Position numbers and translations under genes: made by a program | In this document: positions 2,240-54,659 of the stretch, one piece after another | Numbering within the stretch: the stretch's first letter is position 1 | How the letters are laid out: every line of letters starts with the position of its first letter | From: an uncultured Clostridia bacterium | GTDB taxonomy: Bacteria > Bacillota > Clostridia > Christensenellales > UBA3700 | Reading direction: 5' to 3' | NCBI GenBank assembly: GCA_937880755.1 | Contig: CALGRX010000020.1 | Span: 56,119-120,118, forward strand | DNA: 64,000 bases | The notes under the pieces: generated by a model | Databases searched by the model: none | Seen by the model: only the letters and a program-made list of their open reading frames with translations | What the model was told of the DNA's origin: nothing

Positions 2240-2935
2240 TTATCCCAATACCTTAGCAATAGAATCGCAAAGATTGTCAAATCCGCCCGTTGTGGTATCG
2301 TAATCGTATTGAATTACGTTGTCCATAGGTTGCAATTCTATCACGTTGCCATCGGCGTCAACTGCGTATCCAATTGCTTCTTCGTTGTAGGTTACGTTGT
2401 CCTCAACGCTTGCGGAAACTGCTCCCGTGCCGGCAGTTGCCATATTGATTATCAACAACGTTGCGATAACGGCTACGATAAAGAAGTATACGCAAATCAT
2501 CATTTTTGCCTTTGTATTGAGCTTGGACTTCTTTTTGGCGTTGGTTTTATTGCTATTGTTGACGTTTTGGTTCATTGCAGGGTTTTGTCTTACGTAGCCC
2601 TCGCTGTTGTCGCGATAATAATATCCCGAATTCTCTTGTGGGCGAGCGTAATCGGCGCTTGCTTGAGCATAACTATCTTGATAACGATATCCTGCTTCGT
2701 AGTTTTGATTGTAATCGCGTGCATATGTATTATAATTATTGTACGCTTGTTCATAATAACGATTTTGGTAGTCGTTTTGATAGTTATTCTGATAATATCC
2801 GTTGTCGTTAGCGTTGTCGTCATAGCTTTGGGTATATCCGCTTTGTCCGTATGCAGAATTGTAATATGCAAAATTATTGACGTCGTTTTCATACGTGCTT
2901 TGTTCGTATTTTTCTCTTTCCATCAATTTGTTCAT
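2240..2935 (-). CDS. Hypothetical bitopic membrane protein in the ftsL position; N/Y/Q-rich cytoplasmic domain, one TM, small extracellular domain
   Basis: 231 aa; ATG is preceded by AAGGAG. About 135 aa are rich in N, Y and Q, followed by KKKSKLNTKAK, the TM MMICVYFFIVAVIATLLIINMA and about 65 aa outside. It sits between rsmH and the PBP. Confidence 0.75.
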   Translation of the reverse strand: MNKLMEREKYEQSTYENDVNNFAYYNSAYGQSGYTQSYDDNANDNGYYQNNYQNDYQNRYYEQAYNNYNTYARDYNQNYEAGYRYQDSYAQASADYARPQENSGYYYRDNSEGYVRQNPAMNQNVNNSNKTNAKKKSKLNTKAKMMICVYFFIVAVIATLLIINMATAGTGAVSASVEDNVTYNEEAIGYAVDADGNVIELQPMDNVIQYDYDTTTGGFDNLCDSIAKVLG

Positions 2936-2951
2936 ATCTCTTCTCCTTTGG

Positions 2952-3884
2952 CTATATTTTTTGCGCTATTCTCAACTTGGCGCTAGATGCTCTACTGTTG
3001 TTTTGCAACTCTTGCTCGCTAGCCACGATAGGTTTTTTGGTGATAATCTCTATCTCTTTGACCTTGTCGCAAGTGCAAATTGGTTGTTGCGGAGGACATA
3101 TACAGTCCTTTTCGAGGTATTGAAAAGCCCTTTTGACTATCCTATCCTCTAGCGAGTGGAAGGTGATAACGCATATCCTTCCGCCAACCTTGAGTCTTCT
3201 TGCAAGTCCCTCTACTATCGTATCAAGTCCGCTAAGCTCTCCGTTGACCTCTATTCTTATCGCCTGAAAGGTTCTTTTACAAGGATTTCCGCCCTTCCAT
3301 CTAAGCTTTGCAGGATAAGAATTTTCTACTATCTCGGCAAGCTCGCCCGTAGTTGTTATTTTTTGTTTTGATCTGGCAACTACGATATTGTGAGCAATTC
3401 TTCTTGCAAGTCTATCATCACCGTATTGGTATATGACGTCGGCAAGCTCTTCTTCGTCGTATTCGTTGACCACTTCCATTGCGCTGAGGCGTTGGGATTG
3501 GTCCATTCTCATATCGAGAGGCGCGTCGCTGTTGTAGCTAAATCCCCTATCTGCGTTGTCGAGCTGGTAGGACGAAACGCCAAGGTCCAACAACACTCCG
3601 TCTATTTGGTCTATCTCCATCTCGTCCAAGTGCGACAAAGAGTTTTTGAAGTCGTCGTGAACGTAGGTGATTTTTTCTCTATACGGTGACAGTCTTACCA
3701 TCGTGCTCTCTATCGCTTGAGCGTCCTTGTCGAAAGCTATGAGTCTTCCCGTCGTAAGGCGCTCGAGTATCTTTTCGCTGTGTCCGCCACCGCCCAACGT
3801 TCCGTCTACGTAAATTCCGTCGGGTTTGATATCCAAGCCTTGTATACATTCTTCAAGTAGTACGGGTACGTGTCTAAATTCCAT
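2952..3884 (-). CDS. rsmH: 16S rRNA (cytosine1402-N4)-methyltransferase RsmH/MraW
   Basis: 310 aa starting MEFRHVPVLLEE, with the SAM motif DGTLGGGGHS. Downstream of mraZ. Confidence 0.95.
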   Translation of the reverse strand: MEFRHVPVLLEECIQGLDIKPDGIYVDGTLGGGGHSEKILERLTTGRLIAFDKDAQAIESTMVRLSPYREKITYVHDDFKNSLSHLDEMEIDQIDGVLLDLGVSSYQLDNADRGFSYNSDAPLDMRMDQSQRLSAMEVVNEYDEEELADVIYQYGDDRLARRIAHNIVVARSKQKITTTGELAEIVENSYPAKLRWKGGNPCKRTFQAIRIEVNGELSGLDTIVEGLARRLKVGGRICVITFHSLEDRIVKRAFQYLEKDCICPPQQPICTCDKVKEIEIITKKPIVASEQELQNNSRASSAKLRIAQKI

Positions 3885-36633: not shown

Positions 36634-38594
36634 TATTTACCTCTCTTTTTTGGGGTTGATTTACCCTTGGCGCGCTTTTTGTCCGAGTTGATTTTATCTA
36701 TCTTGGCTTGGTCTACGTACACCACACCGCTACGAGTTTTGACGGCTTTTTTACCACTCGCATTCTTCGGCTTTTGCTCTAAATAGCCCGACTTTGCCTC
36801 TTCTTTTAGCGGTTTGATAAGACACGAGTATTTGAAACCTATTAGGTCTTGTCTACCCGCCTCGATAAGAGCCTCCTTGACTAGATTGTAGTTTTCCTTT
36901 TTTCTATACTGCATCAACGCCCTTTGCAGTTGCTTTTCCCTTTTGTTCCTCGGCACGTACACCTCTTGCATTGTGTCGGGATTGATACCCGTATAGTACA
37001 TACACGTCGACTTGGTGGACGGGGTTGGATAGAAGTCTTGCACTTGCTCGGGCATATATCCTATCGACTTGAGATAGAGTGCTAGATTGATTGCGTCGTC
37101 TAGCGTACACCCCGGGTGCGAAGAGATAAGGTAAGGCACGAGATATTGCTTTTTGCCTAGCTTTTTGTTGATATCGTCAAACTTTGTCTTAAATCTAAGG
37201 TACAATTCAAAGTTTGGCTTATTCATATTCTTCAGCACGTTGTCGCTGACGTGCTCGGGGGCGACTTTGAGTTGTCCCGACACGTGGTATTTGATTACCT
37301 CTTCAATAAACTCGTCGCTCTCGTCGTATATAGCGTAGTCGTATCTTATACCGCTACGTATAAACACCTTCTTTACACCTTCCAACTTCCTTAAAGTGCG
37401 TAGCAAATCGAGATACTCGCTATGGTCGACTTTCAAATTAGGACAAGGCTTGTAGCCGATACATTGCCTATCGGGACACACTCCTTTATCCCATTGTTTA
37501 GAGCAAGCGGGGTCGCGGAAATTGGCTGTTGGTCCGCCCACGTCGTGGATATATCCTTTGAAGTCGCTATCCTTAGTAAATTCTACCGCCTCTTGCACTA
37601 TGCTTTCTTTGGAACGTTTTTGTACCACTCTGCCTTGATGATATGCAATGGCGCAATAGTTGCAGTTGCCGTAGCAACCGCGCACCGAGGTGATACTATA
37701 CTTGACCTCTTCTATGGCAGGTACGCCCTTGGTATACTTGGGGTGATAGGTTCTCTCGTAAGGTAAGGCGTATATCTCGTCCATTTCCTTGCTAGACATA
37801 GGCAGTTGCATAGGATTTTGCACCAGATACTTGTCGCCGTGTTTTTGAAGAACAACCTTGCCGTGAGCGTGGTCGTTGGTCTTGGTCTGGGTATTGAATG
37901 CTCTCACGTAAGCGAGTTTGTCGCTCTTGACTGCCTCGTAGCTCTCGCAAAATACAGCTTTATGGTTATCTACGTCCTCTTTGATTTTGCTTGGTAGCGT
38001 GTCGAAGTCACTGAGATAGCAAGTACCTCTCACGTCCTTGATTTTGGACAGCGGAACGCCTCTTTTGAGATAATTGCAAATATCTTTGATAGGTCGCTCG
38101 CCCATACCGTATATCAGCAAGTCGGCTTTGCTCGACACGAGTATGCTCGGCAAAACCTTGTCCGCCCAATAGTCGTAGTGTGCAAATCTTCTTAGCGAAG
38201 CTTCTATTCCGCCTATTACGATAGCGCTATCGGGATAGAGTCTTTTTAGCGTGTTGCAATACACGTCTACGGCTCTGTCGGGGCGTAGCCCTGCTTGTCC
38301 GCCCTCGCTGTACACGTCGCGACTTCTTCGTATTTTGGCAACGGTATAATTGTTGACCATACTGTCCACCACACCGCTTGACACCAAAAAGCCCATCTTA
38401 GGCTCACCGAAAATACGATAATCATCGTCCTTTTGCGGTTGAGTGATTATAGCAATACTGAGACCCATACTTTGTATGAGCCTCGATATTATTGCGTGTC
38501 CGAATGACGGGTGGTCTACGTAGGCTTCGCCTATCACGTACACCAAGTCCACTCTGCCCGACACTTCGTGTTTTTCGGTTGGTAAAAACGCCAT
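36633..38594 (-). CDS. ygiQ: YgiQ family radical SAM protein (UPF0313)
   Basis: 653 aa with radical SAM cluster motif CYGNCNYC and a lysine-rich C-terminal tail. The start overlaps the purL stop by 1 nt (TAATG). Confidence 0.85.
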   Translation of the reverse strand: MAFLPTEKHEVSGRVDLVYVIGEAYVDHPSFGHAIISRLIQSMGLSIAIITQPQKDDDYRIFGEPKMGFLVSSGVVDSMVNNYTVAKIRRSRDVYSEGGQAGLRPDRAVDVYCNTLKRLYPDSAIVIGGIEASLRRFAHYDYWADKVLPSILVSSKADLLIYGMGERPIKDICNYLKRGVPLSKIKDVRGTCYLSDFDTLPSKIKEDVDNHKAVFCESYEAVKSDKLAYVRAFNTQTKTNDHAHGKVVLQKHGDKYLVQNPMQLPMSSKEMDEIYALPYERTYHPKYTKGVPAIEEVKYSITSVRGCYGNCNYCAIAYHQGRVVQKRSKESIVQEAVEFTKDSDFKGYIHDVGGPTANFRDPACSKQWDKGVCPDRQCIGYKPCPNLKVDHSEYLDLLRTLRKLEGVKKVFIRSGIRYDYAIYDESDEFIEEVIKYHVSGQLKVAPEHVSDNVLKNMNKPNFELYLRFKTKFDDINKKLGKKQYLVPYLISSHPGCTLDDAINLALYLKSIGYMPEQVQDFYPTPSTKSTCMYYTGINPDTMQEVYVPRNKREKQLQRALMQYRKKENYNLVKEALIEAGRQDLIGFKYSCLIKPLKEEAKSGYLEQKPKNASGKKAVKTRSGVVYVDQAKIDKINSDKKRAKGKSTPKKRGK

Positions 38595-41500
38595 TATTTG
38601 AAGTATTCCACTCCGCTTTCAAAGAGCTTCATATCATAGTTGCCCTCTACGTTCTTGTAGAGATTGTCGTCTATTCTTTCGCTGTGACCCATCTTACCGA
38701 GCACTCTGCCGTCAGGGGAGATAATACCCTCGATGGCCTTCATACTGCCGTTAGGGTTGTAAGGCGAAGTCATAGTTGCATTGCCAAAGACGTCGACGTA
38801 TTGCGTAGCCACTTGTCCCGCTTTGACGAGTTTGTCGAGCTCTTCTTGTCCCGAAACGAATCTTCCCTCGCCGTGGCTGACGGCAACTTTGTACACCTCG
38901 TCGACGCGACAAGCGTTGAGCCAAGGCGACTTGTTGGTAGCCACTCTCACGTTGACTATAGTCGATACGTGTCGAGAAATATTGTTAAATGTCAAGGTAG
39001 GAGCGTCGGCTTTTTGCTCTCTTATGTCGCCGTAAGGCACTAGTCCCAACTTGATGAGAGCTTGGAAGCCGTTGCATATACCGAGAGCAAGTCCGTCCCT
39101 ACTATATAGCAGCTTCATTACCGCCTCGGCGATTGCAGGGTTTTTGAAGGTCGTCGCGATAAACTTACCGCTTCCGTCAGGCTCGTCACCACCGCTAAAT
39201 CCACCCGGGAAAGCAAGTATTTGCGCCCTATCTAGTGCCTTAACCAAGGCTTTTGCCGTCTCTTCTATATCCTTAGAGGATTGATTTTTGACTATGAATA
39301 TATCGGCTTTTGCGCCCGCTCTCTCAAAGGCTCTTGCCGTGTCGTATTCGCAGTTAGTTCCCGGGAATACGGGTATGAGAACGGTAGGTTTGACGATATT
39401 TCTAGGCGCTCTCTCGTGCTTGCGAGCCACGCAAATGAGGTTGTTAGCCTCTCCGCTCGCCGGCGCCGTGGTTGGGAATACGCTCTCGAGCGTGCCCGTA
39501 AAGGCTTCGATAGCCTTGTCCATCTTGACCTCAACACCGCAAAGGTCGCAAGTATAAGTTCCGTTGAGGCTAGCGACCTTATCTACGTCAAAGCCATTCA
39601 AGCCGTCTATATCCTCGGCAAGAATTACCAAGTCGCCGAAGCGAGGTGTGAGCATATCCACGGTCAGCGCTTCCCAATCGGTGCCCGCCTTGTTACCCAT
39701 ACAAGCCTTGTATACGCTAGCGAGCACACCGCCCTCTTCTACCACGTTGCAGGCCTTGATTTTGCCAGCAACGATAGCGTCGTTGACGGCGTCGTAGAGC
39801 TTTAGCGTCTTATCAAAGTCGACCATATCGTACTCATCCCTTGGCAAAGACACGTGATAGATATCCTTGACTTTGCCGTCAAAGGCGAAGGTATTGGAGA
39901 TGACCTTGCTTGCCTTGGTTATACCCATAGCAAAACTGATGAGGGTAGGCGGAACGTCGATATTCTCAAAAGTTCCGCTCATACTGTCCTTACCGCCGAT
40001 AGCGCCCACGCCGAGACCTATCTGAGCGTAGAGTGCGCCGAGCAGTGCCGACAAAGGTTGTCCCCATCTCTCGGGATCGTTGCCCAACCTCTTGAAGAAT
40101 TCTTGCAACGATAGTCTAACGGTATCCACTCTCACACCGCAAGCCACCAATTTAGACAGCGACAAAACGATAGAATACACGCTACCCACGAAAGGCGAAG
40201 CGCTCATAAGTTGCGGAGAACAACCGTAACTCGACACGGTAGCGGTATCGGTCTTGCCGTTTACAGGCGGTTTAGCCGCCATAGCCACTGCAGGTGTAAG
40301 TTGGTATTTTCCGCCAAAAGGCATCAACACGCTACCCGCGCCGATAGTCGAGTCGAAGGTTTCGCCGAGCCCCTTGGTGGAACATACGTTGAGGCGGGAG
40401 AGTTCGTGATATAGCACTCCCGCAAAGTCGCCCTTAGCAAAGAGCTTTGCACTCTCCTCGTCCGGCTTGTTCATATAGTCGGTGGCGTTGTCCTTGACTA
40501 CCGCCTTGGTAGTTTGCTTGACGCCGTTGGTATCGAGGAAGCTTCTCTTGAGGTCGACAATACAGTTGCCTGCGTAGAACATTCTCATTCTGCCGTTGTC
40601 GGTAACTTCAGCCACGGCTACGGCGTTGAGGTTTTCCTCTTTTGCATAATTGATAAATTGTTCTACGGTGTCCTTAGCGAGTACTACCGCCATTCTCTCT
40701 TGCGATTCGGATATGGCAAGCTCCGTACCCGACAAGCCCTCGTACTTCTTAGGCACTTTGTCTAGGTAAATATCAAGGCTGTCGGCAAGCTCGCCAATAG
40801 CCACAGACACACCGCCCGCGCCGAAGTCGTTACACTTAACGATGAGTCTTGCTACGTCTTTGTTGCGGAATAGTCTTTGTATTTTTCTCTCGGTAGGAGG
40901 ATTTCCCTTTTGTACTTCAGCGCCACACACCTCCACCGACTTTTCGGTATGGGCTTTGGAGCTTCCCGTTGCGCCGCCGCAACCGTCTCTACCCGTCTCA
41001 CCGCCGAGAAGCACTATAATATCTCCCTCGATAGGCTTTCTTCTCACCACGTTTTCTTTCGGTGCTCCCGCAATGACGTAGCCCGTCTCCAATCTCTTAG
41101 CCACGTAGTTAGGGTGATACATCTCGGCAACGAGTCCCGTCGCCAAACCTATTTGGTTGCCGTAACTACTATAACCCGCAGCCGCCGTCTTGGTGATAAC
41201 GCGTTGAGGCAACTTGCCCTTTAGCGTCTCCTCGATAGGCTTTCTCGGGTCGGCGGCACCCGTAACTCTCATTGCTTGGTATACGTAAGTTCTACCCGAC
41301 AGCGGATCTCTTATCGCACCGCCGAGGCAAGTAGCAGCACCACCGAAAGGCTCGATTTCCGTTGGGTGGTTGTGCGTTTCGTTTTTGAACATTATCAGCC
41401 ACTTCTCGTCCTTTCCGTCCACGTCGACGTCTACTTCCACGCTACAAGCGTTGATTTCGTCGCTCACGTCGAGGTTGTCGAGCTTGCCCTCTTTTTTCAA

Positions 41501-42331
41501 CTTTTTGACGGCAATGGTGGCAATATCCATCAAGCACTTGTACTTGTCTTCTCTTTTTGCATTAAACTCTTGATATAAATCGTTGTACAAGTCGAGCGCC
41601 TTGAATAGATGCGGATTGTCCGACTTGATATCCACGTCGGTAATCTCGGTAGCAAAGGTGGTGTGACGGCAATGATCCGACCAATAGGTATCGATAACTT
41701 TGAGTTCAGTTTCGCTAGGGTCGCGCTTTTCGCCCGCAAAGTAATCTCTCACGAACTTGAGGTCGAGGACGCTCATGGCAAAGCCTTTTTCGGCGTGATA
41801 CTCAGCGATTTGCTCGTCGCTCATAGCAATGAAGCCGTCTATAGTAGGCACGGTGAGTTGCAGGTTGACTTGACTGACTAGCGTATCAGGCAAAATCATA
41901 TCACCCTCTCTCGCCTCTACCGGGTTGATGAGGTACTTCTTGATAGCGGTTATTTGGCTATCCGTGCACCCCTTGATAGCGTAGACTTTAGCGCACTTGA
42001 TGAGCGGTCTTGTGCCCATAGACAACAACTGTACGCATTGCATAGCGCTATCTGCTCTTTGGTCGTACTGTCCCGGCAAATACTCTACCACGAAGACGGT
42101 ATAACCCGTCAAATCGGGGAGGGTTTCGTATAGATTGTCCACGGGAGCTTCGGAGAATATCGTACTCTTGGCACTCTCGTAGACCGCGTCGTCGATATTT
42201 TCGATATCGTATCTAATCAATTCTCTCACGTCCTCGGCGTTGATACCCAGCACGTTTTTGACGTCGGCAAGCGTCTTTTTTGCCGAAACGTTGTAGTTTT
42301 GTTTTTTCTCTACGAAAATTCTTCTTACCAT
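38594..42331 (-). CDS. purL: Phosphoribosylformylglycinamidine synthase, large single-chain type
   Basis: 1245 aa with FGAM synthetase domains and a C-terminal glutaminase (GICNGFQAL). Confidence 0.95.
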   Translation of the reverse strand: MVRRIFVEKKQNYNVSAKKTLADVKNVLGINAEDVRELIRYDIENIDDAVYESAKSTIFSEAPVDNLYETLPDLTGYTVFVVEYLPGQYDQRADSAMQCVQLLSMGTRPLIKCAKVYAIKGCTDSQITAIKKYLINPVEAREGDMILPDTLVSQVNLQLTVPTIDGFIAMSDEQIAEYHAEKGFAMSVLDLKFVRDYFAGEKRDPSETELKVIDTYWSDHCRHTTFATEITDVDIKSDNPHLFKALDLYNDLYQEFNAKREDKYKCLMDIATIAVKKLKKEGKLDNLDVSDEINACSVEVDVDVDGKDEKWLIMFKNETHNHPTEIEPFGGAATCLGGAIRDPLSGRTYVYQAMRVTGAADPRKPIEETLKGKLPQRVITKTAAAGYSSYGNQIGLATGLVAEMYHPNYVAKRLETGYVIAGAPKENVVRRKPIEGDIIVLLGGETGRDGCGGATGSSKAHTEKSVEVCGAEVQKGNPPTERKIQRLFRNKDVARLIVKCNDFGAGGVSVAIGELADSLDIYLDKVPKKYEGLSGTELAISESQERMAVVLAKDTVEQFINYAKEENLNAVAVAEVTDNGRMRMFYAGNCIVDLKRSFLDTNGVKQTTKAVVKDNATDYMNKPDEESAKLFAKGDFAGVLYHELSRLNVCSTKGLGETFDSTIGAGSVLMPFGGKYQLTPAVAMAAKPPVNGKTDTATVSSYGCSPQLMSASPFVGSVYSIVLSLSKLVACGVRVDTVRLSLQEFFKRLGNDPERWGQPLSALLGALYAQIGLGVGAIGGKDSMSGTFENIDVPPTLISFAMGITKASKVISNTFAFDGKVKDIYHVSLPRDEYDMVDFDKTLKLYDAVNDAIVAGKIKACNVVEEGGVLASVYKACMGNKAGTDWEALTVDMLTPRFGDLVILAEDIDGLNGFDVDKVASLNGTYTCDLCGVEVKMDKAIEAFTGTLESVFPTTAPASGEANNLICVARKHERAPRNIVKPTVLIPVFPGTNCEYDTARAFERAGAKADIFIVKNQSSKDIEETAKALVKALDRAQILAFPGGFSGGDEPDGSGKFIATTFKNPAIAEAVMKLLYSRDGLALGICNGFQALIKLGLVPYGDIREQKADAPTLTFNNISRHVSTIVNVRVATNKSPWLNACRVDEVYKVAVSHGEGRFVSGQEELDKLVKAGQVATQYVDVFGNATMTSPYNPNGSMKAIEGIISPDGRVLGKMGHSERIDDNLYKNVEGNYDMKLFESGVEYFK

Positions 42332-42342
42332 TGTCCTTATCC

Positions 42343-43599
42343 TTATTTCTTTATTCCTATATCCGTGCGATAAAACATCTTGTCAAAGTGTACTTTTTTG
42401 ACGTTGGCGTAAGCGATTTCTCTCGCCTTGTCCATATCATCGGCAAGGGCAGTCACGCCCAACACTCTACCGCCGTTGGTGACGAGCACGCCGTCCTTCT
42501 TGGCAGTGCCCGCGTGGTATAAGATTACACCGTCGTCAAGTTTGTCTATAGTGATAGGCAATCCCTTGGCGTAGGCTTCGGGATAACCACCGCTTGCGAC
42601 TATGACGCATACGGCGGTCTTATCGTTCCATTTGATATCTATCTTGTCGAGCGTGCCGTCAATGCAAGCGTTGAATATATCGTATATATCGCTCTCCAGC
42701 TTAGGCAAAACGACTTGAGTCTCGGGATCGCCGAAGCGCGCGTTATACTCCAGCACCTTTACGCCGTCGCTCGTCAACATCAGTCCGCAGTATAGTACGC
42801 CTTTGAATGTTCTATCCTCGGCGTTCATAGCCTTGACGGTTGGCACGATAATGGTGTCGTACACCTCTTGTGCCATTTCGGGGGTATATATTTTAGACGG
42901 AGCAAAAGTGCCCATACCGCCCGTATTGAGTCCCTCGTCGTTGTCGTGCGCCCTCTTGTGGTCTTGCGAAGACACCATAGGCACGACTGTCTTACCGTCG
43001 CAGAAGCATAGCACCGACACCTCTTTGCCTACCATAAATTCTTCTATTACGACCTTCTTACCCGCATCCTTAAACTTGCCGTCAATCATCATTTCTTTGA
43101 CGGCGTCTATGCCCTCTTGCTTGTCGTTGCATATAATTACGCCTTTGCCAAGAGCAAGTCCGTCGGCTTTGACGACGAGCGGATATGTGGCGTTGCTCAC
43201 GTACTCAATCGCTCCGTCGCAATCGTCGAATTCTACGTAGTCGGCGGTCGGAATACCGTATTTTTTCATTAGGTTTTTGCTAAAAGCCTTGCTTGCCTCG
43301 ATTATAGCCGCGTTTTTCTTAGGACCAAAGGCGCGCATACCGTTGCTCTCTAGCAAGTCAACGAGACCTCCTGCGAGAGGATCGTCGGGCGCAACCACCG
43401 TCAAATCGATATCCTTATGTTCTTTGACAAACTTAATTATATTGTCAAAGTCCATCACGCCGATATTGTGACACTCGGCTATTTCTGCAATGCCCGCATT
43501 GCCGGGCAAGCAATAAATTTTGTCTACTTTCGGGCTCTTGGCGAGTGCAATACAAATTGCGTGTTCTCTGCCACCGCTTCCAATAACGAGTACACTCAT
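42343..43599 (-). CDS. purD: Phosphoribosylamine--glycine ligase
   Basis: 418 aa starting MSVLVIGSGGREHAI, with an ATP-grasp fold. Confidence 0.97.
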   Translation of the reverse strand: MSVLVIGSGGREHAICIALAKSPKVDKIYCLPGNAGIAEIAECHNIGVMDFDNIIKFVKEHKDIDLTVVAPDDPLAGGLVDLLESNGMRAFGPKKNAAIIEASKAFSKNLMKKYGIPTADYVEFDDCDGAIEYVSNATYPLVVKADGLALGKGVIICNDKQEGIDAVKEMMIDGKFKDAGKKVVIEEFMVGKEVSVLCFCDGKTVVPMVSSQDHKRAHDNDEGLNTGGMGTFAPSKIYTPEMAQEVYDTIIVPTVKAMNAEDRTFKGVLYCGLMLTSDGVKVLEYNARFGDPETQVVLPKLESDIYDIFNACIDGTLDKIDIKWNDKTAVCVIVASGGYPEAYAKGLPITIDKLDDGVILYHAGTAKKDGVLVTNGGRVLGVTALADDMDKAREIAYANVKKVHFDKMFYRTDIGIKK

Positions 43600-43608
43600 A
43601 TTCTCTCC

Positions 43609-45147
43609 TTAGTGTTTGAAGTGTCTATCACCTGTAAATACCATTGCAATGCCGTATCTGTTGCAAGCGTCAATACTGAGTTGGTCGTTTCTACTTCCGC
43701 CGGGTTGCATAATAGCGGCGATTTTGCCTTGGTGAGCCGCCTCTACGCAGTCGTCGAACGGGAAGAAAGCGTCGGATGCAAGCACAGCTCCCTCGGTTGA
43801 GGTCAAAGAATGCTCGATAGCTTGCTTGGTAGCTCTAATTCTATTGACTTGCCCTCCGCCAATACCTAGGATAGTCTTGTCCTTAGCCACCACGATAGCG
43901 TTGGACTTGGTGTGCTTGACCACCTTCATTGCGAATATCAAATCTTCCATTTGCTCTTTGGTGACTTTCTTTTCGGTGACGTCCACGACCTTATCCATAT
44001 CCACGACCATTTTGTCGTACTCTTGCACGAGCAGTCCTCCAAGCACCTTTTTCATATCGTAGCAGCCTTGAGGTATTGGGCTTGCGATGCCGTCGAGTTT
44101 GAGCAGTCTGATATTAGGCTTTTGGGTGAGGATAGCGAGAGCGTCCTCATCGAAGTCGGGAGCGACTACTATCTCGATAAAGATTTTATGTATTTGCTCG
44201 GCAGTCGCCTTGTCGATAGTTCTATTGGCAGCCACTATTCCGCCGAATATAGAAGTAGGATCTGCCGCGTTGGCTTTGTAGAAAGCCTCGGAGATAGTAT
44301 CGGCGGTAGCCACTCCGCAAGGGTTGGCGTGCTTTACGGCAACTATAGTAGGCTCGTCGAATTCTCTAAGCAAGTCGAGTGCGCCGTTGGTGTCGTTGAT
44401 ATTGTTGTAGCTCAGCTCTTTGCCGTGCAGTTGAACGGCAGTTGCAAGCGAGCCTTTGACGTCGAAGGCTTCCTTGTAGAATACGGCGTTTTGGTGAGGA
44501 TTTTCGCCGTAACGCATATCTTGCGCCTTGTCAAAAGCCATAGTAAATTGGTCTGGGAATTCGATACCTAGTTTGCTTCTTAGATAGTTGGCAATGAGGG
44601 TATCGTAGTAAGAGGTATGTTGATATACCTTATACATAAGGTAGAATTTGGTTTCTCTCTTTATCTCGCCCTCTTCGAGTTCCGTCAAAACCTTGGCATA
44701 GTCGGCAGGATCGACCACGACGGCAACGTCTTGGTAATTTTTAGCCGCGCTTCTGAGCATCGTAGGTCCGCCGATGTCGATATTTTCGATAGCGGTCTGC
44801 AAGTCCACGTTTGGCTTGGACACGGTAGCTTTGAAAGGATAAAGATTTACCACCACTATATCTATGGTATTGATATTCATCTTTTCAAGAAAAGCCATAT
44901 GCTCGGCGTTATCTCTCATAGCCAAAAGGCCTGCGTGCACGTTAGGGTGCAAGGTCTTTACTCTGCCGTCGAGGCACTCGGGGAAGCCCGTAATCGAACT
45001 GATATCGATTGCGTCAAGTCCCGCATCTTTGAGGACTTTGAGCGTTCCGCCCGTAGAGATAATCTCATAACCAAATCCAACTAGACGAGAGGCAAAGTCA
45101 ACGATGCCACTCTTGTCAGATACACTTATCAATGCTCTTTTTTTCAT
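43609..45147 (-). CDS. purH: Bifunctional AICAR transformylase / IMP cyclohydrolase
   Basis: 512 aa starting [12 protein letters not shown] (MGS-like) with the C-terminus TGDRHFKH. Confidence 0.97.
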
Positions 45148-45171
45148 TTTATTTCTCCTTATACGTATTGA

Positions 45172-45750
45172 TTATTTACACAATTTTGCCACGACCGACG
45201 GCAAAAGGATATGTTCTTGAATTAGCACTCTCTCTTGCAAGGTTTGAGGAGTGTCGCCCTCTAAGACGGGCACTTTGACTTGAGCGATTATCTCGCCCGT
45301 ATCAGCGCCCTCGTCCACGAAGTGTACCGTTGCACCGCTTTCCTTTTCGCCCGCTGCTATCACGGCTGTATGCACCTTGAGTCCGTACATACCCTTTCCG
45401 CAAAACTTAGGAATGAGTGACGGGTGAATATTGATAATCTTGCCTCTATACTTGTCCACGAGGCTTGGGGTGACTATCGCAAGATAACCGGCAAGCACCA
45501 CCAACTCTACGTCCTTTTGGACTAGATAATCAATGATAGCTCTATCTCTGTCCTCGGCGTCCTTGTAGTCAGCTAGCCTAAAGACTCTACTCTCGATGCC
45601 GTGTTTCTTAGCTCTATCCAGCGCGCCTATGCCGTCCTTGTTGGTTACCACGGCTACGACCTTGCCGTCTATAAGACCGCTCTCGCAACCGTCCACCACA
45701 GACTGCATATCACTACCGCCACCCGAAGCGAATATCGCTATTCTCTTCAT
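45172..45750 (-). CDS. purN: Phosphoribosylglycinamide formyltransferase
   Basis: 192 aa with [10 protein letters not shown] and NIHPSLIP motifs. Confidence 0.95.
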
Positions 45751-46763
45751 AGTTCTACGCCCTCTTTGTCCGTAACTTCGCCAATGATATAAGCCTTTTC
45801 GCCCATAGCGTTGAGTTCGTCGGTGACGGCGTTTGCGATTTGAGGGTCAACGGCAAGCACCATTCCTATACCCATATTGAAGGTGTTGCACATTTTGGTG
45901 TCGTCGATGCCTGCAATCTCTTGCAATGCCTTGAATAGTTTAGGCAGCGGATAACTGCTTCTATCGATATGCACGCCCATGCCCTTAGGAATGATACGAG
46001 GCACGTTTTCAATAAAACCGCCGCCCGTGATATGCGCAATGCCCTTAATCTCGAATTTTTCTATAATGCTAAGAATTGTCTTGACGTAAATTCTCGTAGG
46101 AGTCAACACCACTTCGGCAGGGGTGCAACCGAGCGTCTCGTTGTACTTGTTGAGGCTCTCCTTGTCCTCGCCGAAGAGCTTTCTGACTAGAGAATAACCG
46201 TTGGAGTGGATACCGCTACTTGCTAAGCCTATGAGCTTGTCGCCCACCTTGATGTTTTTGCCGTTGATAATCTTCTTTTTGTTGACGATACCTACAGCAA
46301 AGCCCGCAATGTCGTATTCGTCCTTGGCATAGAATCCCGGCATCTCGGCAGTCTCACCGCCGATGAGCGCGCAACCCGATTGGCAACAACCCTCGGCCAC
46401 GCCTTTGACGATAGTAGCCACCTTGTTAGGCTCCAACTTAGATAGAGCGATATAGTCTAAGAACAACAGTGGTTTTGCGCCTTGGCAAACGATATCGTTG
46501 ACGCACATAGCCACGGCGTCTATACCGATTGTGTCGTGCTTGTCCAATACGAAAGCGTATTTGAGTTTCGTACCCACGCCGTCGGTACCCGCTACCAAGC
46601 AATCTCCGTCCTCTCTGTCGTCTAGCGCATAAAAGCCTCCGAAACTGCCGAGATCTCCCAACACGTTGCCGTTGTACGTCTTTTTTACGTACTGTTTCAT
46701 CAGTTTTACCGCCTCGTAACCTGCCTCTACGTCCACGCCTGCGGACTTGTAATCAATAGCCAT
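45747..46763 (-). CDS. purM: Phosphoribosylformylglycinamidine cyclo-ligase (AIR synthetase)
   Basis: Starts [15 protein letters not shown]. The ATG at 46761-46763 is preceded by AAGGAGGA; the track start at 46787 lacks an RBS. Confidence 0.95.
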
Positions 46764-46861
46764 TTTGTCCTCCTTGAATAAATGCAATATGGGCTTGCTT
46801 CCAAACCCATACGAATATAATAATTTTTAATACTTTCTCTTCATACCAACACCCGCCACGA

Positions 46862-47350
46862 TTATACGAGTTGTTGCAGTTTGGCGTCGTCGCCGTTGAT
46901 TTTGTCCGCCATATCTTGCTTGTACTTTTTCATTTTTTCGCCAAGCTCGGGATATTTGATAGACAGCATTTGTATAGCGAGCAGTCCAGCGTTGAGTCCG
47001 CCGTTGATAGCCACGCAAGCCACGGGAATACCCGACGGCATTTGCACCATAGATAGTAGACTGTCCAATCCGTCCATAGTGGAACTCTTGACGGGTAGTC
47101 CTATGATTGGTAGCGACGTATATGCGGCAATCACTCCGCCGAGGTGAGCCGCTTTGCCCGCAGCGCAAATAATCACTTCGATACCGTTAGCCTCGGCATT
47201 GCAAGCGTACTCGTGAGCCTCGTTGGGAGTGCGGTGCGCAGAAATAACTCTGGCGTCGACTTCCACGCCGAATTTCTTGAGTATTTCGATTGCAGGTTTT
47301 ACTACGTCAAGGTCGCTGAGGCTACCCATAACAACGCCAACTTTAGCCAT
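46862..47350 (-). CDS. purE: 5-(carboxyamino)imidazole ribonucleotide mutase
   Basis: 162 aa with VGVVMGSLSD and SAHRTP motifs. It is the first gene of the pur operon here. Confidence 0.95.
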   Translation of the reverse strand: MAKVGVVMGSLSDLDVVKPAIEILKKFGVEVDARVISAHRTPNEAHEYACNAEANGIEVIICAAGKAAHLGGVIAAYTSLPIIGLPVKSSTMDGLDSLLSMVQMPSGIPVACVAINGGLNAGLLAIQMLSIKYPELGEKMKKYKQDMADKINGDDAKLQQLV

Positions 47351-47544
47351 ATTTTTCTCCTAAAAGTTTGTCAAAATAAATTAGAAAAAAGATAAATAAT
47401 CTTACTGCCCATATACTACCATATTTCGATACTTTTTTGCAAGGAAAAAGCCCCAAATTAAAATATTTATTTACAAAATACACAATTTGCATAATTTTGT
47501 CGATTTTTGTGTTTTTTAACGGATTTTTTTGCGATTTTGGGCAG

Positions 47545-47675
47545 TTATCCACAGCATTATCCACATTTGACCTCAGTTATCCACATTCCGAAAAGTCGAT
47601 TTTTTATCCACCTTTGCCGACAAGTATCGGTTTTTTGCCAAAATTATCAAACTAAATATATCCGACTTATCCACA
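47545..47675 (+). promoter_or_regulatory. Array of five co-oriented DnaA boxes (4x TTATCCACA, 1x TTATCCACC)
   Basis: Exact matches read directly: 47545-47553, 47557-47565, 47577-47585 and 47667-47675 (TTATCCACA), and 47604-47612 (TTATCCACC). An AT-rich tract lies immediately to the left (47455-47540). Confidence 0.75.
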
Positions 47676-47865
47676 TACAATTTTAGCTAATTTTATGCAG
47701 TTTTCACCCCTATTTCTATCCCAAATCTATCGCAATTTGTACGTATTTTCTTTCAATACAACTACTCACTTAAACGTCATTCAATACTTGCGTAGCTCTA
47801 AGAGCAATTTATGTCGCATTTACTCTACTCGCGACAATCTTTTTCTCCACACTACCCCAACTCTT

Positions 47866-50412
47866 TCATTGCAAAATAAATGCCAACACGGTTTGGCTTT
47901 TTGTATCGTTATTTATCTTATCGGCAAGTCCACCTTCTTTGGCTCTCCACAAAGACAATACCTTGCCTGCTTTATCATCAAAGTGGTGCTTGATTTCGCC
48001 CAATACTCTATCGGAGATTTTGACCTTGTGGAAGTATTGCTTGAGTGTCTTGATTACCTCTCTTGCCTCGTCCACCTCGACGTCACCGCTCAAAGCCTCA
48101 TATATATCTTCTACGACAGTATGGTTGATTACGTAGTCGGCTATCTCCACGCCTACGCCAATATACTCGCCCTTGTTCGCCTTGTTTAAGCCTTTCCACA
48201 GTCGGTCTATCAATTCGTTTGTTCCCTTGACAGTTCCTACCATACCTTTTTCCTCGAAGATAAGCCTCTCTTCTATATCGGCTATTATCTTCTTGGCTTC
48301 GGCTTTGGTGAATATCTTGTCGGTGGTAAGGTTACCCTTTGCCTTGATTATATCCCCCTCATTGCTTGGTGCAGGCGACTTGCGAGAGAGTTTTATATCG
48401 TTAGGATTTTTTGAAACAAAATCTTGACTTTTTATATCTATCTTACGTATAATAGTATTAGAAGCCAAGTTTATTATAACGTCGGACAATTGGAGTCCGG
48501 GGTTCACTGATACTCTTTGGCTTCTTTTTTTATCCCAAAAAAGTATTTTATCATTATCAATGAATTTTTTTATATAACTATAAAAATTATCTTTTCCATA
48601 TGCGCTTGTCATTACATTGGCTTGAATGATAATATTCTCCAATCTTCCTATGCCGTTAACTTTAATCGCTACAATAATTGGTTTATTTTTCTTATCAACA
48701 GCTTGCGTTATTAAAACTACGCTATCATCTCTTGTTAGACTCTCGGCTATCAATGCAGGTTTTTCAATAAGTTTTGGTAGTTGTTTTATTATGTCTATAC
48801 CTAACCCGTGATAGTTTAGACCTTTCTTACCACTCTCATTTACTGTTGTATCCAAATGTCGTGCAGTCATCAAAATAGGAAGTTTTGGCAAACCAACGTC
48901 TTGCAATATTTGTGGTGTGTCCATAATTTTGAGATGTGTTGACGTAGTATCTTTTCCGCCCAATATGTCGTCTACTTGCTCGGCAAATGGCTTGATAGAG
49001 TACCTTATATCTTGGTCGCTCGTTGGGTTGAGATTGGTTGTAAGTTTTATTTGATTCGGCTCAAAAGCCACAACCATTTTACTTGTACCATCATCAATTA
49101 TAATACTGTCAGCCTCTAACGCATCATAATCGTCCAAAATAGCTCCTTGAAAAGCGTCCCAAAATCCTATACTATCATCATCGGTTAGAGCTTTTGCAGG
49201 ATATCCGTTCTTTTTCAAATATTCTTTATTTATAATAAGTGGTTTTTCCCCTAAAATATAGCAAGGAAGAACTCTACCTTTTTTGCTACTAAATTCTGAG
49301 GTGGAATAATCTTCTGCTATGCTCTTTCTATCAATAAAGAAGAAACCTCTATCGTCAAAAGAAAAGCGTGAGCCTATAAACTCTTTACTAAATTTATAGA
49401 ACTCATTTTTAGGAGTTCCGTGATAAACCACGAGCAAATTGCCTTGCTCGTCTCTTACCTTACTATCTCTAAAATATTCCGCTTGTTGTTGGCTTAATTC
49501 TTTGCCTTGACTGTCTTTGAGGGAATAGTTCTTTTTCTTCGTTCCGTCCGGATATGTTACTATTTGTCTTCCGTCATCGTTGAAGTGGTAGTCTACTGCT
49601 CGCTTATTTCCGTTGCCTTTTTGAGAATGTCCGATTCCGTCGCTTTCGGATTCTCCAAGAGGTATTCCGCCATTGTAGCTATCTGCTCGTCCTTCGGAAT
49701 CAAGAGCATTATTGCGACGATTGCGTCTTGCTTGACTTTTAAGAACTTCAAGCACTCGATTAAGTTCGCTTGTGCTTCCAATAATTGATTCGCCATTGTT
49801 TTCTCCTATTTTCGCTTCAATAGAAGCGATATATTCTTGATTTGCGTCCGTGATTTTGATTTGCTTCAAAACTCCGAAGTTGCCAAGGGCAAAGTTTTCG
49901 TACACATAGAAGTAGTTAGCGCTTCTTGCTGCGCCATACCTCGGAAGTTCTTCCTCACGAGCCCTATATCTCGAATTATCTTCCATAATACGGCTACTAA
50001 TAATTGCGTACTCTTGCTTCGGAATTTGCTTATATATTTCTTTTTTATTATACTGCAAAGCAAGCGTTTGGTCAACACCAACCTCGGCATTTTGCTCGTC
50101 TACTTGGACTTGTTTGTTGTCTTCTCTACCTTGCTCTATTATTTGGATGAGGTTTTGTCTTCCGTGGTCGTATGCACTGCGCAAGTACATATTTTCCGCC
50201 AAAGTAAGCACCTTATACTCGGCTCTTTTCTCACCGCTCATCTTGAAGAGTTTAATAAGGTTTTGTATCTTCTTGACAATGCGCATAGCAATATTAGGTT
50301 GTTCCGCTACAACCTTGTCTATAAACTGCTCGTTGCCTATCAATTCTTCCGTCAACAGTGCCGTAAGTTCGCTATCTATCGTCTTTTGGTCGCTACCTTG
50401 GTATCTCTCCAA
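47866..50412 (-). CDS. Start-less ORF resembling an internal fragment of a phage/conjugative-element polyvalent protein (ART-PolyVal-like + MuF_C/PBECR-like modules); possibly a pseudogene
   Basis: 848 codons with a TTG track start and no RBS. The frame stays open upstream to a TGA at 50485-50487, inside the gdhA terminator. Motifs: LLVVYHGT...GFFFIDRKSIAEDY...VVAFEPNQIK...DIRYS, then MTARHLD...NYHGLGIDIIKQLPKLIEKPALI. The core is AT-rich. Confidence 0.55.
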   Translation of the reverse strand: MERYQGSDQKTIDSELTALLTEELIGNEQFIDKVVAEQPNIAMRIVKKIQNLIKLFKMSGEKRAEYKVLTLAENMYLRSAYDHGRQNLIQIIEQGREDNKQVQVDEQNAEVGVDQTLALQYNKKEIYKQIPKQEYAIISSRIMEDNSRYRAREEELPRYGAARSANYFYVYENFALGNFGVLKQIKITDANQEYIASIEAKIGENNGESIIGSTSELNRVLEVLKSQARRNRRNNALDSEGRADSYNGGIPLGESESDGIGHSQKGNGNKRAVDYHFNDDGRQIVTYPDGTKKKNYSLKDSQGKELSQQQAEYFRDSKVRDEQGNLLVVYHGTPKNEFYKFSKEFIGSRFSFDDRGFFFIDRKSIAEDYSTSEFSSKKGRVLPCYILGEKPLIINKEYLKKNGYPAKALTDDDSIGFWDAFQGAILDDYDALEADSIIIDDGTSKMVVAFEPNQIKLTTNLNPTSDQDIRYSIKPFAEQVDDILGGKDTTSTHLKIMDTPQILQDVGLPKLPILMTARHLDTTVNESGKKGLNYHGLGIDIIKQLPKLIEKPALIAESLTRDDSVVLITQAVDKKNKPIIVAIKVNGIGRLENIIIQANVMTSAYGKDNFYSYIKKFIDNDKILFWDKKRSQRVSVNPGLQLSDVIINLASNTIIRKIDIKSQDFVSKNPNDIKLSRKSPAPSNEGDIIKAKGNLTTDKIFTKAEAKKIIADIEERLIFEEKGMVGTVKGTNELIDRLWKGLNKANKGEYIGVGVEIADYVINHTVVEDIYEALSGDVEVDEAREVIKTLKQYFHKVKISDRVLGEIKHHFDDKAGKVLSLWRAKEGGLADKINNDTKSQTVLAFILQ

Positions 50413-50466
50413 TATCTCTTGTTGACGAGCATTGAGTATTCCTTTTCCCTCGGCTATCTTGCGTAC

Positions 50467-50494
50467 AAAAAAGGTCGGTATATTTCAACCGACC
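50467..50494 (-). terminator. gdhA terminator
   Basis: Minus strand: GGTCGGT-tgaaatat-ACCGACC followed by TTTTTT, 22 nt after the gdhA stop. Confidence 0.8.
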
Positions 50495-50516
50495 GATTTT
50501 ATTTGATTTTGGTGGA

Positions 50517-51959
<1,443 letters not shown>

Positions 51960-52052
51960 TTACAAATAACGTAGTATAACATTGCATTATGCTATTGACT
52001 ATCGCCCATTTTATGGTTATAATATATACAAATAAGTGATACAAGGTGTCAA

Positions 52053-52970
52053 ATGATTAGCAATATTTTTACAATGTTGGTAGATTTACTCAACAATCCC
52101 AAATGCACTGCGCAAGAATTGGCTAGCAAACTCGAAATCAGCGAACGCACCGTCTATCGTTACGTAGACGTTCTAAGTTTTGCTCACGTACCCGTCGTAT
52201 GCAAAAAAGGTAGAGACGGCGGAATTATGATAGGCGAAGACTTCAAGCTTCGCGCCCAATATCTTACTAGAGAAGAATTGGAGTTGATTTTCACCTCTCT
52301 CGACACCCTGCCCTTCAACGACACGGCGGTGGGTATCAAGGCTAAGCTTCAAAATATCAATACCGACAAGCGCACGGATGAAAACTTCCACTCAGACCTA
52401 TTCGTAGTGGACAAGTCTACTTGGGGCAACAACACCAATCTCCAACAAAAGATGGACGCTTTGCTCAAAGCCCGTTCTCGCAAAAAGGCAGTCAAAATCA
52501 CCTATCACGATAGAGGTGGCAACCTCTCCGAACGTGTAATCGAGCCATACGTGGTTGTGTACGGTGCAGGAATATGGTACATATACGCATGGTGCCGTAT
52601 GCGCAACCAAATGCGCACCTTCAAAATCAGCCGTATCACGCATATTTTGCATACAGACAGCGACTTCAAGCCTAGAGAATTTACCAACGCCTGGAAGATA
52701 GCCAACAAACTTGACAATGCTCAAGAGATAAGCATAGTGCTCAAGGTCAACCAAAACGCCCGTTACGACGTAGAAGAATGGCTGGGCGTCGAAGCGGTCA
52801 ACAAAGCCGAACAAGGCGACTATTGGATAGCGCAAGCCTACGTCACAGTGGGCGACAAACTCATAGACAAGCTTCTCTCCTATCGCGAAAACGTCGAAGT
52901 CCTCTCCCCTATCTCCATAAGAGATAAAGTCAAAGAGAGCGCAATGAATATCGCCAAACTATACAAGTAA
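52053..52970 (+). CDS. YafY-family transcriptional regulator (HTH + WYL + WCX domains)
   Basis: 305 aa with the N-terminal HTH TAQELASKLEISERTVYRYVDVL and the WYL region ITYHDRGGNLSERVIEPYVVVYGAGIWYIYAWCRMRNQMRTFKISRI. RBS AAGGTG. Confidence 0.8.
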   Translation: MISNIFTMLVDLLNNPKCTAQELASKLEISERTVYRYVDVLSFAHVPVVCKKGRDGGIMIGEDFKLRAQYLTREELELIFTSLDTLPFNDTAVGIKAKLQNINTDKRTDENFHSDLFVVDKSTWGNNTNLQQKMDALLKARSRKKAVKITYHDRGGNLSERVIEPYVVVYGAGIWYIYAWCRMRNQMRTFKISRITHILHTDSDFKPREFTNAWKIANKLDNAQEISIVLKVNQNARYDVEEWLGVEAVNKAEQGDYWIAQAYVTVGDKLIDKLLSYRENVEVLSPISIRDKVKESAMNIAKLYK

Positions 52971-53083
52971 CACTCACGATATATACCTCGCAATATGTGT
53001 CAAAAGACAACTTTTCTTGTTTTGCTCGTATCTCTATCGACAAAAGTTTTTTTTCATAGCGGTATAGCGTAGACCAAGTAGTT

Positions 53084-53392
53084 TTGTCATTCAGAGCGAG
53101 CAAATCGAACGACTCTCAACCGTTGTGTCATTGCGCTGTATACATTTTGCGTAAGCAAAGACGTAGGCACTTGTGCCGAAGTGCGGCAATCTCACCTCTT
53201 GTGTCATTGCGCTGTATACATTTTGCGTTAGCAAAGTGAGCAAAGCGAGCGCGGCAATCTCATCAAAATAAAGCCTCCTTTGTGCAAAGGGAGGTGGCTT
53301 GCCGAACGGCAAGACGGAGGGATTGTTTTATGTCATTGCGACCGGTGCATTTTGCGACAGCAAAGAGCGTGTTTTCACGCTGTGGCAATCTC
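53084..53392. repeat. Cluster of intergenic repeat units (A units GTCATTGCG...GGCAATCTC x3-4, plus one B hairpin element)
   Basis: GTGTCATTGCGCTGTATACATTTTGCGT occurs at 53125-53152 and 53201-53228, each unit ending CGGCAATCTCA. A diverged unit lies at 53331-53392 and a degenerate unit at 53084-53118. The B element is at 53275-53325. Confidence 0.85.
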
Positions 53393-53413
53393 CGACGACC
53401 ATTAGCATTTATC

Positions 53414-53443
53414 AAAAAAGACACACCCTATATCGAGTGTGCC
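53414..53443 (-). terminator. icd terminator
   Basis: Minus strand: GGCACAC-tcgatatagg-GTGTGTC (one G-U pair) followed by TTTTTTG. Confidence 0.7.
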
Positions 53444-53459
53444 TCTTTTATTCATTCAA

Positions 53460-54659
53460 TTATATTCTTTTGGCTATCTCGGTGAGGAAGTCGCGAGTCT
53501 CCAAGGTATGCACCTCTACGTCGCCCTTATATAGCGTTGCGAGGTCGCCCGTCATATAGCCCGATTCGATAGTGTCGATAGTGGCTTTTTCTAGTCTATC
53601 GGCGTAGTCTGCCAAGTCGTCGAGCCCGTCGAGTTCCGCTCTCTTGCGAAGTGCCCCCGACCAAGCGAAGATAGTTGCCACGGGGTTGGTGGAAGTCGAC
53701 TTACCTTCCAAGTATTTGTAGTAGTGTCTGGTAACGGTGCCGTGAGCCGCCTCATACTCATACTTGCCGTCTGGCGAAACGAGCACCGAGGTCATCATAG
53801 CAAGCGAACCGAATGCCGTTGCCACCATATCGCTCATCACGTCGCCGTCGTAGTTTTTGCACGCCCAGATCATACCGCCGTTGCTTCTCACTACTCTCGC
53901 CACGGCGTCGTCTATCAAGGTGTAGAAGTATTCTATGCCCGCTTCCTCAAACTTGCTCTTATATTCGCCCACGAATATCTCGGCAAAGATATCCTTAAAT
54001 CTATGGTCGTAGGTCTTGGATATGGTGTCTTTGGTGGCAAACCATAGGTCTTGCTTGGTATCCAAGGCATAGTTGAAGCAACTTCTTGCAAAACTCGATA
54101 TACTCTTGTCGGTATTGTGCATACCCATCGTCACGCCCGCGCTCTTAGCGTAGTCGAAGATTTCTATTTCTCTATGACCTTGCTCGTCGTCGATGACGAG
54201 TTTAGCCTTACCGCCCTTGGTTACGTAGCCCTCTACGTCCTTGTAGATATCGCCGTAAGCGTGTCTTGCAATGGTGATAGGGCTTGTCCAAGTAGGTATA
54301 TAAGGCGTAATGCCTTTGACCATGATAGGCGCTCTAAACACCGTGCCGTCGAGTATTGCTCTCACCGTGCCGTTAGGGCTCTTCCACATAGTAGAAAGGT
54401 TGTATTCCTTTACTCTCTGAGCGTTAGGGGTAATGGTAGCGCACTTTACGCCCACGCCGTACTTTACGATAGCGTTGGCGGAGTCCACCGTCACTTGGTC
54501 CTTGGTAGCTTCTCTATTGACAAGACCGAGGTCGTAATATTCACTTTTGAGTTCCACGTAAGGTTCGATAAGTATCTCTTTTATCCATTTCCAGATGATG
54601 CGAGTCATCTCGTCGCCGTCGAGTTCTACGATAGGCGTCGTCATTTTAATTTTCGTCAT
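53460..54659 (-). CDS. icd: NADP-dependent isocitrate dehydrogenase (about 400 aa, eukaryote-like subfamily)
   Basis: Starts [23 protein letters not shown] and contains [13 protein letters not shown]. The start was chosen at the ATG at 54657-54659 so that the gene does not overlap ddl. Confidence 0.9.

Follow-up and report, generated by a model that had tools for sequence, protein, structure and literature searches.

DnaA is known mostly as the initiator of replication, and its regulon has been well mapped in few model species. The closest described counterpart of the locus discussed here is found upstream of purH in Escherichia coli, where ChIP-seq by Stringer, Fitzgerald and Wade in 2024 revealed a strong new DnaA peak (PMC11317965). 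In vivo, E. coli DnaA prefers pairs of boxes 2-3 bp apart, and binding at the purH site was abolished by mutating either box or by altering their spacing; regulation of purH by DnaA was suggested, not shown (PMC11317965). In the E. coli sequence (NC_000913.3) this double box precedes the PurR-controlled promoter, begins 210-230 nt before the purH ATG and reads TTATCCACA in the sense direction. DnaA sites upstream of a purine operon are already known in kind from this example. A preliminary description of the DNA analysed here had considered a link between DnaA and purine synthesis to be undescribed, a view that is outdated by the purH result and by the repression of the gua operon by DnaA that was reported in 1992, as cited in PMC8203912. 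The E. coli guaB site was unconfirmed by ChIP-seq (PMC11317965). DnaA also regulates nrdAB in this organism (PMC8203912). Our full-text literature search found no paper that connects DnaA boxes to the pur operon or a DnaA regulon to purines, and none of the matches listed for DnaA box with purE dealt with purE regulation or with the Christensenellales.

Clusters of DnaA boxes outside the origin are also known. The Bacillus subtilis gene sda has five boxes upstream of its promoter and is activated by DnaA (Ishikawa 2007, PMC2533591), and six clusters of this species located outside oriC (DnaA-box clusters, DBCs) restrain initiation (Okumura 2012, PMC3245932). Potential clusters in other Bacillus genomes lie upstream of different genes yet near oriC (PMC3245932). 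E. coli datA is likewise a cluster outside oriC; it needs IHF and acts by DnaA-ATP hydrolysis.

The array described in the following sections is found in the window, by which we mean the whole 64-kb stretch of DNA that was analysed. Like the E. coli purH site, it has boxes with a 3-bp gap approximately 200-230 nt ahead of the first codon of an operon for de novo purine synthesis, and in both cases these lie roughly 85-110 nt upstream of the -35 element. The E. coli site consists of two boxes (7/9 and 9/9 matches) which read TTATCCACA in the sense of the gene, has a PurR operator in the promoter and shares its intergenic region with rrsE, whereas the array belongs to a member of the Bacillota, contains three to five consensus boxes in the opposite orientation, heads an operon beginning with purE and has been kept over at least 24 species. 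It is known from its sequence, while binding to the E. coli site was measured. With E. coli nrdAB and guaBA the locus would share a common logic, namely the coupling of nucleotide precursor synthesis to the initiator, although the nrd boxes abut the promoter and the genes differ from the pur operon of the window. The sda region of B. subtilis resembles the window in having several (five) intergenic boxes upstream of a promoter, kept at the same gene in relatives; sda, however, is a sporulation checkpoint and the operon of the window serves nucleotide synthesis. Finally, datA and the oriC-proximal DBCs of B. subtilis share with the array a location outside oriC and a number of high-affinity boxes of about five or more, but the array is tied to one promoter.

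DnaA boxes of the window

Scanning the 64-kb window for TTATCCACA, the universal high-affinity DnaA box, located exact copies at 47545, 47557, 47577 and 47667, all on the + strand, and a copy with one mismatch (TTATCCACC) at 47604 on the same strand. These positions and their strand agree with the preliminary description. The rest of the window contains no exact box, and 0.64 are expected from base composition for the whole window on both strands. Finding four or more exact boxes in the given 131-bp stretch has a Poisson probability of 1.3e-13, or about 6e-11 once corrected for 488 stretches, so that the original statement that the array cannot be due to chance holds. One-mismatch variants number 21 in the window versus 13.9 expected by shuffling; they are scattered, at about the shuffled level. 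The “weaker box” TTATCAAAC proposed at 47644 departs from the consensus at three positions and was disregarded.

Three exact boxes form a triplet that is conserved among relatives. The promoter-proximal member (47545..47553, + strand) reads TGTGGATAA in the sense of purE and lies at -203 from the ATG. Together with the second box (47557..47565, + strand) it constitutes a double DnaA box, co-oriented and with the 3-bp gap of the dimer site that DnaA prefers in vivo in E. coli (PMC11317965), and the third box (47577..47585, + strand) follows after a gap of 11 bp. The TTATCCACC box (47604..47612, + strand; -262 from purE) is lineage-specific, occurring in the window and in strains of the same species and being absent from the related loci L010, L011 and L054. 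The distal box (47667..47675, + strand; -325), which is exact, is confined to the genus of the window; L010, L012 and L054 carry it without a mismatch and L011 with one. Sites matching TTATNCACA are thereby dense in this region, with four exact boxes and a one-mismatch box in 131 bp, a cluster of about five high-affinity boxes as in datA.

The pur operon and its promoter

The array is situated within a 515-bp intergenic region (47351-47865), 195-325 nt upstream of the purE start, the spacing that had originally been given. It lies about 190 nt past the stop of an 848-aa ORF on the minus strand, beyond which gdh, a divergent WYL regulator, and then icd, ddl and murF are found. On the other side is purE (46862-47350, minus strand; Pfam AIRC), the first gene of a purE-purM-purN-purH-purD-purL operon (38594..47350, minus strand) that is the presumed regulatory target. 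The Pfam domains of the operon are AIRC, AIRS/AIRS_C, Formyl_trans_N, AICARFT_IMPCHas, GARS and FGAR-AT/GATase_5, and a large purL closes it at 38594.

A sigma-70-type promoter is predicted for the operon at 47413..47442 on the minus strand. It is composed of a -35 element TTGCAA (47442-47437), an 18-nt spacer, and an extended -10 element TGgTAGTAT, the hexamer of which is at 47418-47413. The predicted 5′ leader is approximately 55 nt long, with the ribosome-binding site AGGAG at 47361-47357. Between the triplet and the promoter is the AT-rich tract (47455..47540) already mentioned in the preliminary description, with a GC content of 0.21. In the genus of the window this spacer has A-tracts roughly every 10 nt in the purE sense, starting 7, 15, 28, 37 and 47 nt after the proximal box, and is probably bent DNA rather than an unwinding element.

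Rfam searches of window positions 46000-51000, at permissive E values up to 1, matched no family, and in 17 array-bearing loci no riboswitch or other element was found upstream of purE. The same search of 17 array-lacking relatives gave a single purine riboswitch, about 760 nt upstream of purE; with just one riboswitch among these relatives, a scenario in which DnaA replaced a riboswitch is unsupported. No convincing match to a PurBox of the B. subtilis type was seen by eye. Gene callers annotate a 73-aa ORF at 47343-47564, which we dismissed as a coding sequence on two grounds: none of the nine positions varies in any box, and the 20-nt spacing of the boxes breaks the frame. Also rejected was a divergent promoter on the + strand (TTGCAA-16-TAAAAT, 47437-47464) with a small RNA running across the boxes to a terminator-like hairpin at 47616-47631, because this hairpin is not conserved even in L012.

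Conservation among the Christensenellales

The Christensenellales are a health-associated, uncultured family of the gut. A scan for PurE, using one genome per GTDB species, resulted in 80 loci, all from uncultured Christensenellales or other Clostridia; the genomes are all MAGs and carry taxonomic labels given by their depositors. Two to five exact boxes are present about -190 to -345 from purE, in the intergenic region next to the promoter, in every one of the 24 assessable species with PurE at least 76% identical, which share ancestry and so do not represent 24 independent events. In the 55 loci where PurE identity does not exceed 74%, no exact box lies in the corresponding region upstream of purE. 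The array-bearing species together have 79 exact boxes in the 9.6 kb upstream of purE versus none in the 181 kb that make up the rest of their loci, the GC content of which ranges from 0.38 to 0.58. Independent support is limited to the rearranged upstream contexts, to the metagenome locus L156 and to E. coli, all of which are considered below.

In the purE sense the core triplet, which is shared unchanged by the 24 assessable species, reads TGTGGATAA-N11-TGTGGATAA-N3-TGTGGATAA. Among 27 distinct aligned sequences all 27 box positions are essentially invariant and the 3-bp gap of the double box is kept in 27/27, while the spacers and flanks vary freely; invariant boxes in such variable surroundings point to selection on the DNA sites themselves. 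A fourth box occurs in some species, within the 11-nt spacer or else some 35 nt further downstream. An extended -10 promoter (TTGCAw, a 17-18 nt spacer including TGn, and TAnnAT) lies downstream of the triplet in all 24 array-bearing species, with the predicted -35 element 77-113 nt upstream of the ATG. Measured from start to start, the proximal box is 111-168 nt from the predicted promoter (-35), the values being 111, 136, 147 and 168. The array is very probably a genuine, selected DnaA-binding cluster.

Array and inserted genes

In approximately 17 species the ancestral order murF-ddl-icd-array-purE is present with no insertion. The window keeps murF, ddl and icd, and about 5.9 kb have been inserted between icd and the array, in the region 47700-53460. 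The inserted genes encode a WYL/HTH regulator (52053-52970, + strand), a glutamate dehydrogenase (gdh, 50517-51953), and the polyvalent protein of 848 aa, in which Pfam recognizes ART-PolyVal and MuF_C (47866-50412, minus strand). Both gdh and the polyvalent ORF are upstream of the array in the window, L011 and L054, while L010 and L012 have gdh directly upstream, without the polyvalent ORF, and keep the array; other upstream DNA is found in L002, L005, L016 and L033. Among the contigs with an identical PurE (L001-L009) the array is present in all those having enough upstream DNA, including L002 and L005. In L002, other DNA with small ORFs takes the place of the large ORF, and in an ungapped comparison this contig stays highly identical to the window across the array, with a sharp drop some 550-600 nt upstream of purE, close to the ORF stop. 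Every rearrangement is upstream of the array, which stays joined to the pur promoter. The preliminary description had called for a comparison with relatives that lack the 848-codon ORF, and since these strains and species (L002, L010, L012 and the icd-purE species) keep the array, it belongs, as judged from these alignments, to purE and not to the ORF.

Even between genomes whose PurE proteins are identical or 99% identical (the window, L001, L003, L004, L011, L054 and L002), the ART-PolyVal ORF itself is hypervariable. Its alleles are 848, 840, 861 or >1126 aa in length and have either MuF_C or PBECR3 as the C-terminal domain, and those of sister species are 59-76% identical to that of the window. 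It has the appearance of a gene of toxin or defence type that is diversifying while its site stays fixed, and it is not necessarily the truncated relic for which it was first taken.

Comparison with replication origins

One of the readings put forward in the preliminary description was that the array is the relic replication origin of a mobile element to which the polyvalent gene is due; we considered a secondary origin along with it. The array does adjoin a variable ORF of lower GC content (0.39 versus about 0.46-0.48), and has an AT-rich tract beside its boxes. Against this, it is found in the relatives without the ORF listed above, rather than being absent where the element is absent, and homology with the ORF-less strain breaks upstream of it. 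No rep or initiator gene accompanies it and the window has no GC-skew switch, the skew being negative throughout. A blastn search with the intergenic DNA against 72,556 plasmid and 50,697 phage records returned nothing. Searching the window by tblastn with DnaA and DnaN from related gut Clostridia gave only noise, and neither gene was found in these 64 kb, in agreement with the preliminary description. None of the dnaA loci that were recovered, from other Clostridia and Christensenellaceae-labelled genomes, was tied to the genome of the window.

The arrangement of the boxes also differs from that of an origin. The basal unwinding system is characterized by tandem boxes and, within 16 bp 3′ of TTATCCACA, a GC cluster, at least three DnaA-trios and AT-rich DNA; a DnaA-trio is the complement of NAN, the best being CTA (PMC8287927). 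The dnaA-dnaN region of L195, where TTTTCCACA, a GC cluster, CTA-CTG-CTA trios and AT-rich DNA follow in this order 3′ of a TTATCCACA-oriented box, agrees with the published rules (PMC8287927). In the window the tandem pair is followed by TTTGACCTCAG and then another box, with neither a GC cluster nor a run of trios; the sole formal match to three consecutive NTN is a T-run (TTT TTT ATC, spacer 14) overlapping the next box. Moreover, the AT-rich tract of the window is 5′ of TTATCCACA, that is, on the ATAA side of TGTGGATAA, whereas the AT-rich 13-mers (DUE) of E. coli oriC are 5′ of TGTGGATAA (box R1), on the TGTG side, as are the trios and DUE of L195. The polarity is therefore opposite, and the tract flanks the boxes on the side that is wrong for unwinding by DnaA. 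A basal-unwinding origin was rejected on this polarity and on the missing trios. The relic-origin reading is refuted by the array in ORF-less relatives, the lack of similarity to the plasmid and phage records and the side on which the AT-rich tract lies, and we give it next to no credence.

Occurrence of the triplet at other loci

An exact-pattern scan for the triplet geometry matched 78 metagenome and 23 viral contigs. Five further metagenome matches are sites upstream of purE in the same clade. About ten others are located in the dnaA leader of uncultured gut Clostridia, within an rpmH-dnaA-dnaN locus; the relatives of the DnaA encoded there are named Christensenellaceae and Pelethousia. This leader has a box, 3 nt, a box, 11 nt and a box in the TTATCCACA orientation (L133, L195), a geometry identical to that of the window, which supports DnaA as the reader of the arrangement. 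The leader triplet, however, sits downstream of the dnaA promoter, in a position for autorepression, whereas that of the window is upstream of the pur promoter. The dnaA-dnaN locus also possesses a separate true unwinding module (box, GC cluster, trios and AT-rich DNA), unlike the window.

A second purine gene is associated with the triplet in L156, from a metagenome organism with a GC content of 0.33. Here the triplet lies 168 nt upstream of a homologue of purL, 48% identical to that of the window, and about 100 nt upstream of a TTGACA/TATAAT promoter, with the same orientation as in the window. The best protein matches of this organism are only about 45% identical, and its lineage is an orphan in the database searched.

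In two Christensenellaceae-labelled genomes (L192 and L193, positions 2900-3000) clusters of TTATCAACA, not TTATCCACA, are found directly upstream of dnaA. Some members of the order may thus prefer a different DnaA box or make do with weaker ones, and box preference within the order is therefore not uniform.

The triplet is also present in L122 and L129, two contigs from fermentation or other metagenomes, where it precedes divergently transcribed genes of DnaD-like appearance as judged by eye. This fits a DnaA regulon including replication-restart or initiation factors. Some of the phage-like contigs (L177, L099, L181, L182, L091, L130, L137 and others) have 8-13 co-oriented consensus boxes in 600 bp, arranged as regular tandem units such as repeated TGTGGATAACTCTGTGGATAACTCACATAACC. 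These arrays may be phage origins or DnaA sponges.

Possible function of the array

We incline to the interpretation that the array is an upstream operator which modulates transcription of the pur operon, because the cluster is locked to one promoter across species and rearrangements, recurs at purL and at E. coli purH, and such control is physiologically sensible. The preliminary description had offered both a DnaA-box cluster outside oriC and DnaA control of the purine operon; both agree with the evidence, and we favour the latter. DnaA would probably bind as a head-to-tail oligomer in a cooperative manner, nucleating on the double box with its 3-bp gap and on the third box, and one or two further co-oriented boxes would join in the genus of the window. 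The protein would then occupy about -110 to -240 relative to the -35 element and modulate purEMNHDL transcription, such that de novo purine synthesis would follow the amount or the ATP-state of the initiator. Activation, or modulation via the bent AT-rich DNA, appears somewhat more likely than simple occlusion, because no box overlaps the promoter and the layout resembles that of B. subtilis sda. An operator nevertheless has points against it. The boxes are at least 100 nt from the -35 element, which is far for a classical activator or repressor, and their distance from the promoter varies among the species without strict helical phasing. The E. coli purH site demonstrates binding alone, and its boxes are oriented oppositely relative to the gene; the use of TTATCAACA upstream of dnaA in L192 and L193 likewise counts against it.

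Conservation upstream of purE could also be the mere inheritance of a replication-control site in this intergenic region. Such a cluster would resemble datA, DARS or the B. subtilis DBCs in titrating, inactivating or recharging DnaA, and its position at purE would be incidental or would give it a dual role. Five high-affinity boxes in about 130 bp correspond to the size of E. coli datA (PMC3245932), and the B. subtilis DBCs are intergenic, several of them both regulating the neighbouring gene and restraining initiation. We regard this as a possibility to be taken seriously though a less likely one, given that in at least 24 species the cluster has stayed with a single promoter while the DNA upstream was rearranged several times, and that it recurs in front of purL in an unrelated context and of E. 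coli purH. A quite improbable function is that of a roadblock or insulator, with DnaA stopping read-through from the upstream gene (icd, gdh or the polyvalent ORF). DnaA bound in transcribed DNA can block an elongating RNA polymerase (PMC11317965), all of the upstream genes are co-directional with purE and the boxes are all in one orientation; but the upstream gene already has a terminator-like hairpin behind it, located at 47882-47897 in the window and, with a T-run, after icd in L027 and L030, and a roadblock would not need as many as three to five consensus boxes, nor their fixed distance from the promoter. It is more improbable still that another transcription factor happens to recognize TGTGGATAA. 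The oriC boxes of the organism itself were not recovered and the TTATCAACA clusters replace TTATCCACA in some Christensenellaceae-labelled genomes, yet the 9-mer is the DnaA box of bacteria in general, the triplet geometry recurs in the dnaA leader, and the 3-bp spacing of the double box is that required by DnaA in vivo (PMC11317965).

If the array is indeed an operator, then DnaA might even be the main transcriptional regulator by which this family of Christensenellales controls de novo purine synthesis. Its abundance or ATP/ADP state would serve as the signal for purine nucleotides and the cell cycle, a task otherwise left to a PurR operator or purine riboswitch, and the link would either be old or have evolved repeatedly across phyla (at purE here, purL in L156 and purHD in E. 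coli). This broader proposal is speculative and we think it rather unlikely to hold in full. Taken together, the strictly conserved multi-box site and the ChIP result at E. coli purH suggest that purine supply may commonly be coupled to initiation potential. For the study of DnaA action 100-200 bp upstream of a promoter the site is, in addition, a clean test case, with three invariant boxes, fixed spacing, and natural variants having 3, 4 or 5 boxes.

Other features of the purE loci

A ~237-aa ORF, PurC-like by its sequence motifs, is present between purE and purM in other array-bearing genera (L101, L126, L138 and L151). In the window purE and purM are adjacent (46787-46862), and a PurC-like gene must therefore be located elsewhere.

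The loci L013-L031 have two direct copies of CCGTTWWGTCYATA, a further conserved motif, flanking the triplet, at approximately -370 to -322 and -155 to -142 from purE, and this motif is not found elsewhere in the 8-kb loci of the icd-purE species. The genus of the window is without CCGTTWWGTCYATA and has a DnaA box at the upstream position instead. Many species of the same group (L013-L031) contain AAATGCAA about 25-30 nt upstream of the -35 element, as an inverted repeat with TTGCATTT of the -35 region, which could be the operator of a dimeric regulator or a back-to-back -35 element.

The sequence GTCGATTTTT, which is AAAAATCGAC in the purE sense, occurs twice in the window, at 47499-47508 in the AT-rich spacer and at 47595-47604 within the array. 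Similar AAATCGACA motifs flank the triplet in several other species. With one mismatch, the GTCGATTTTT motif resembles a Spo0A box.
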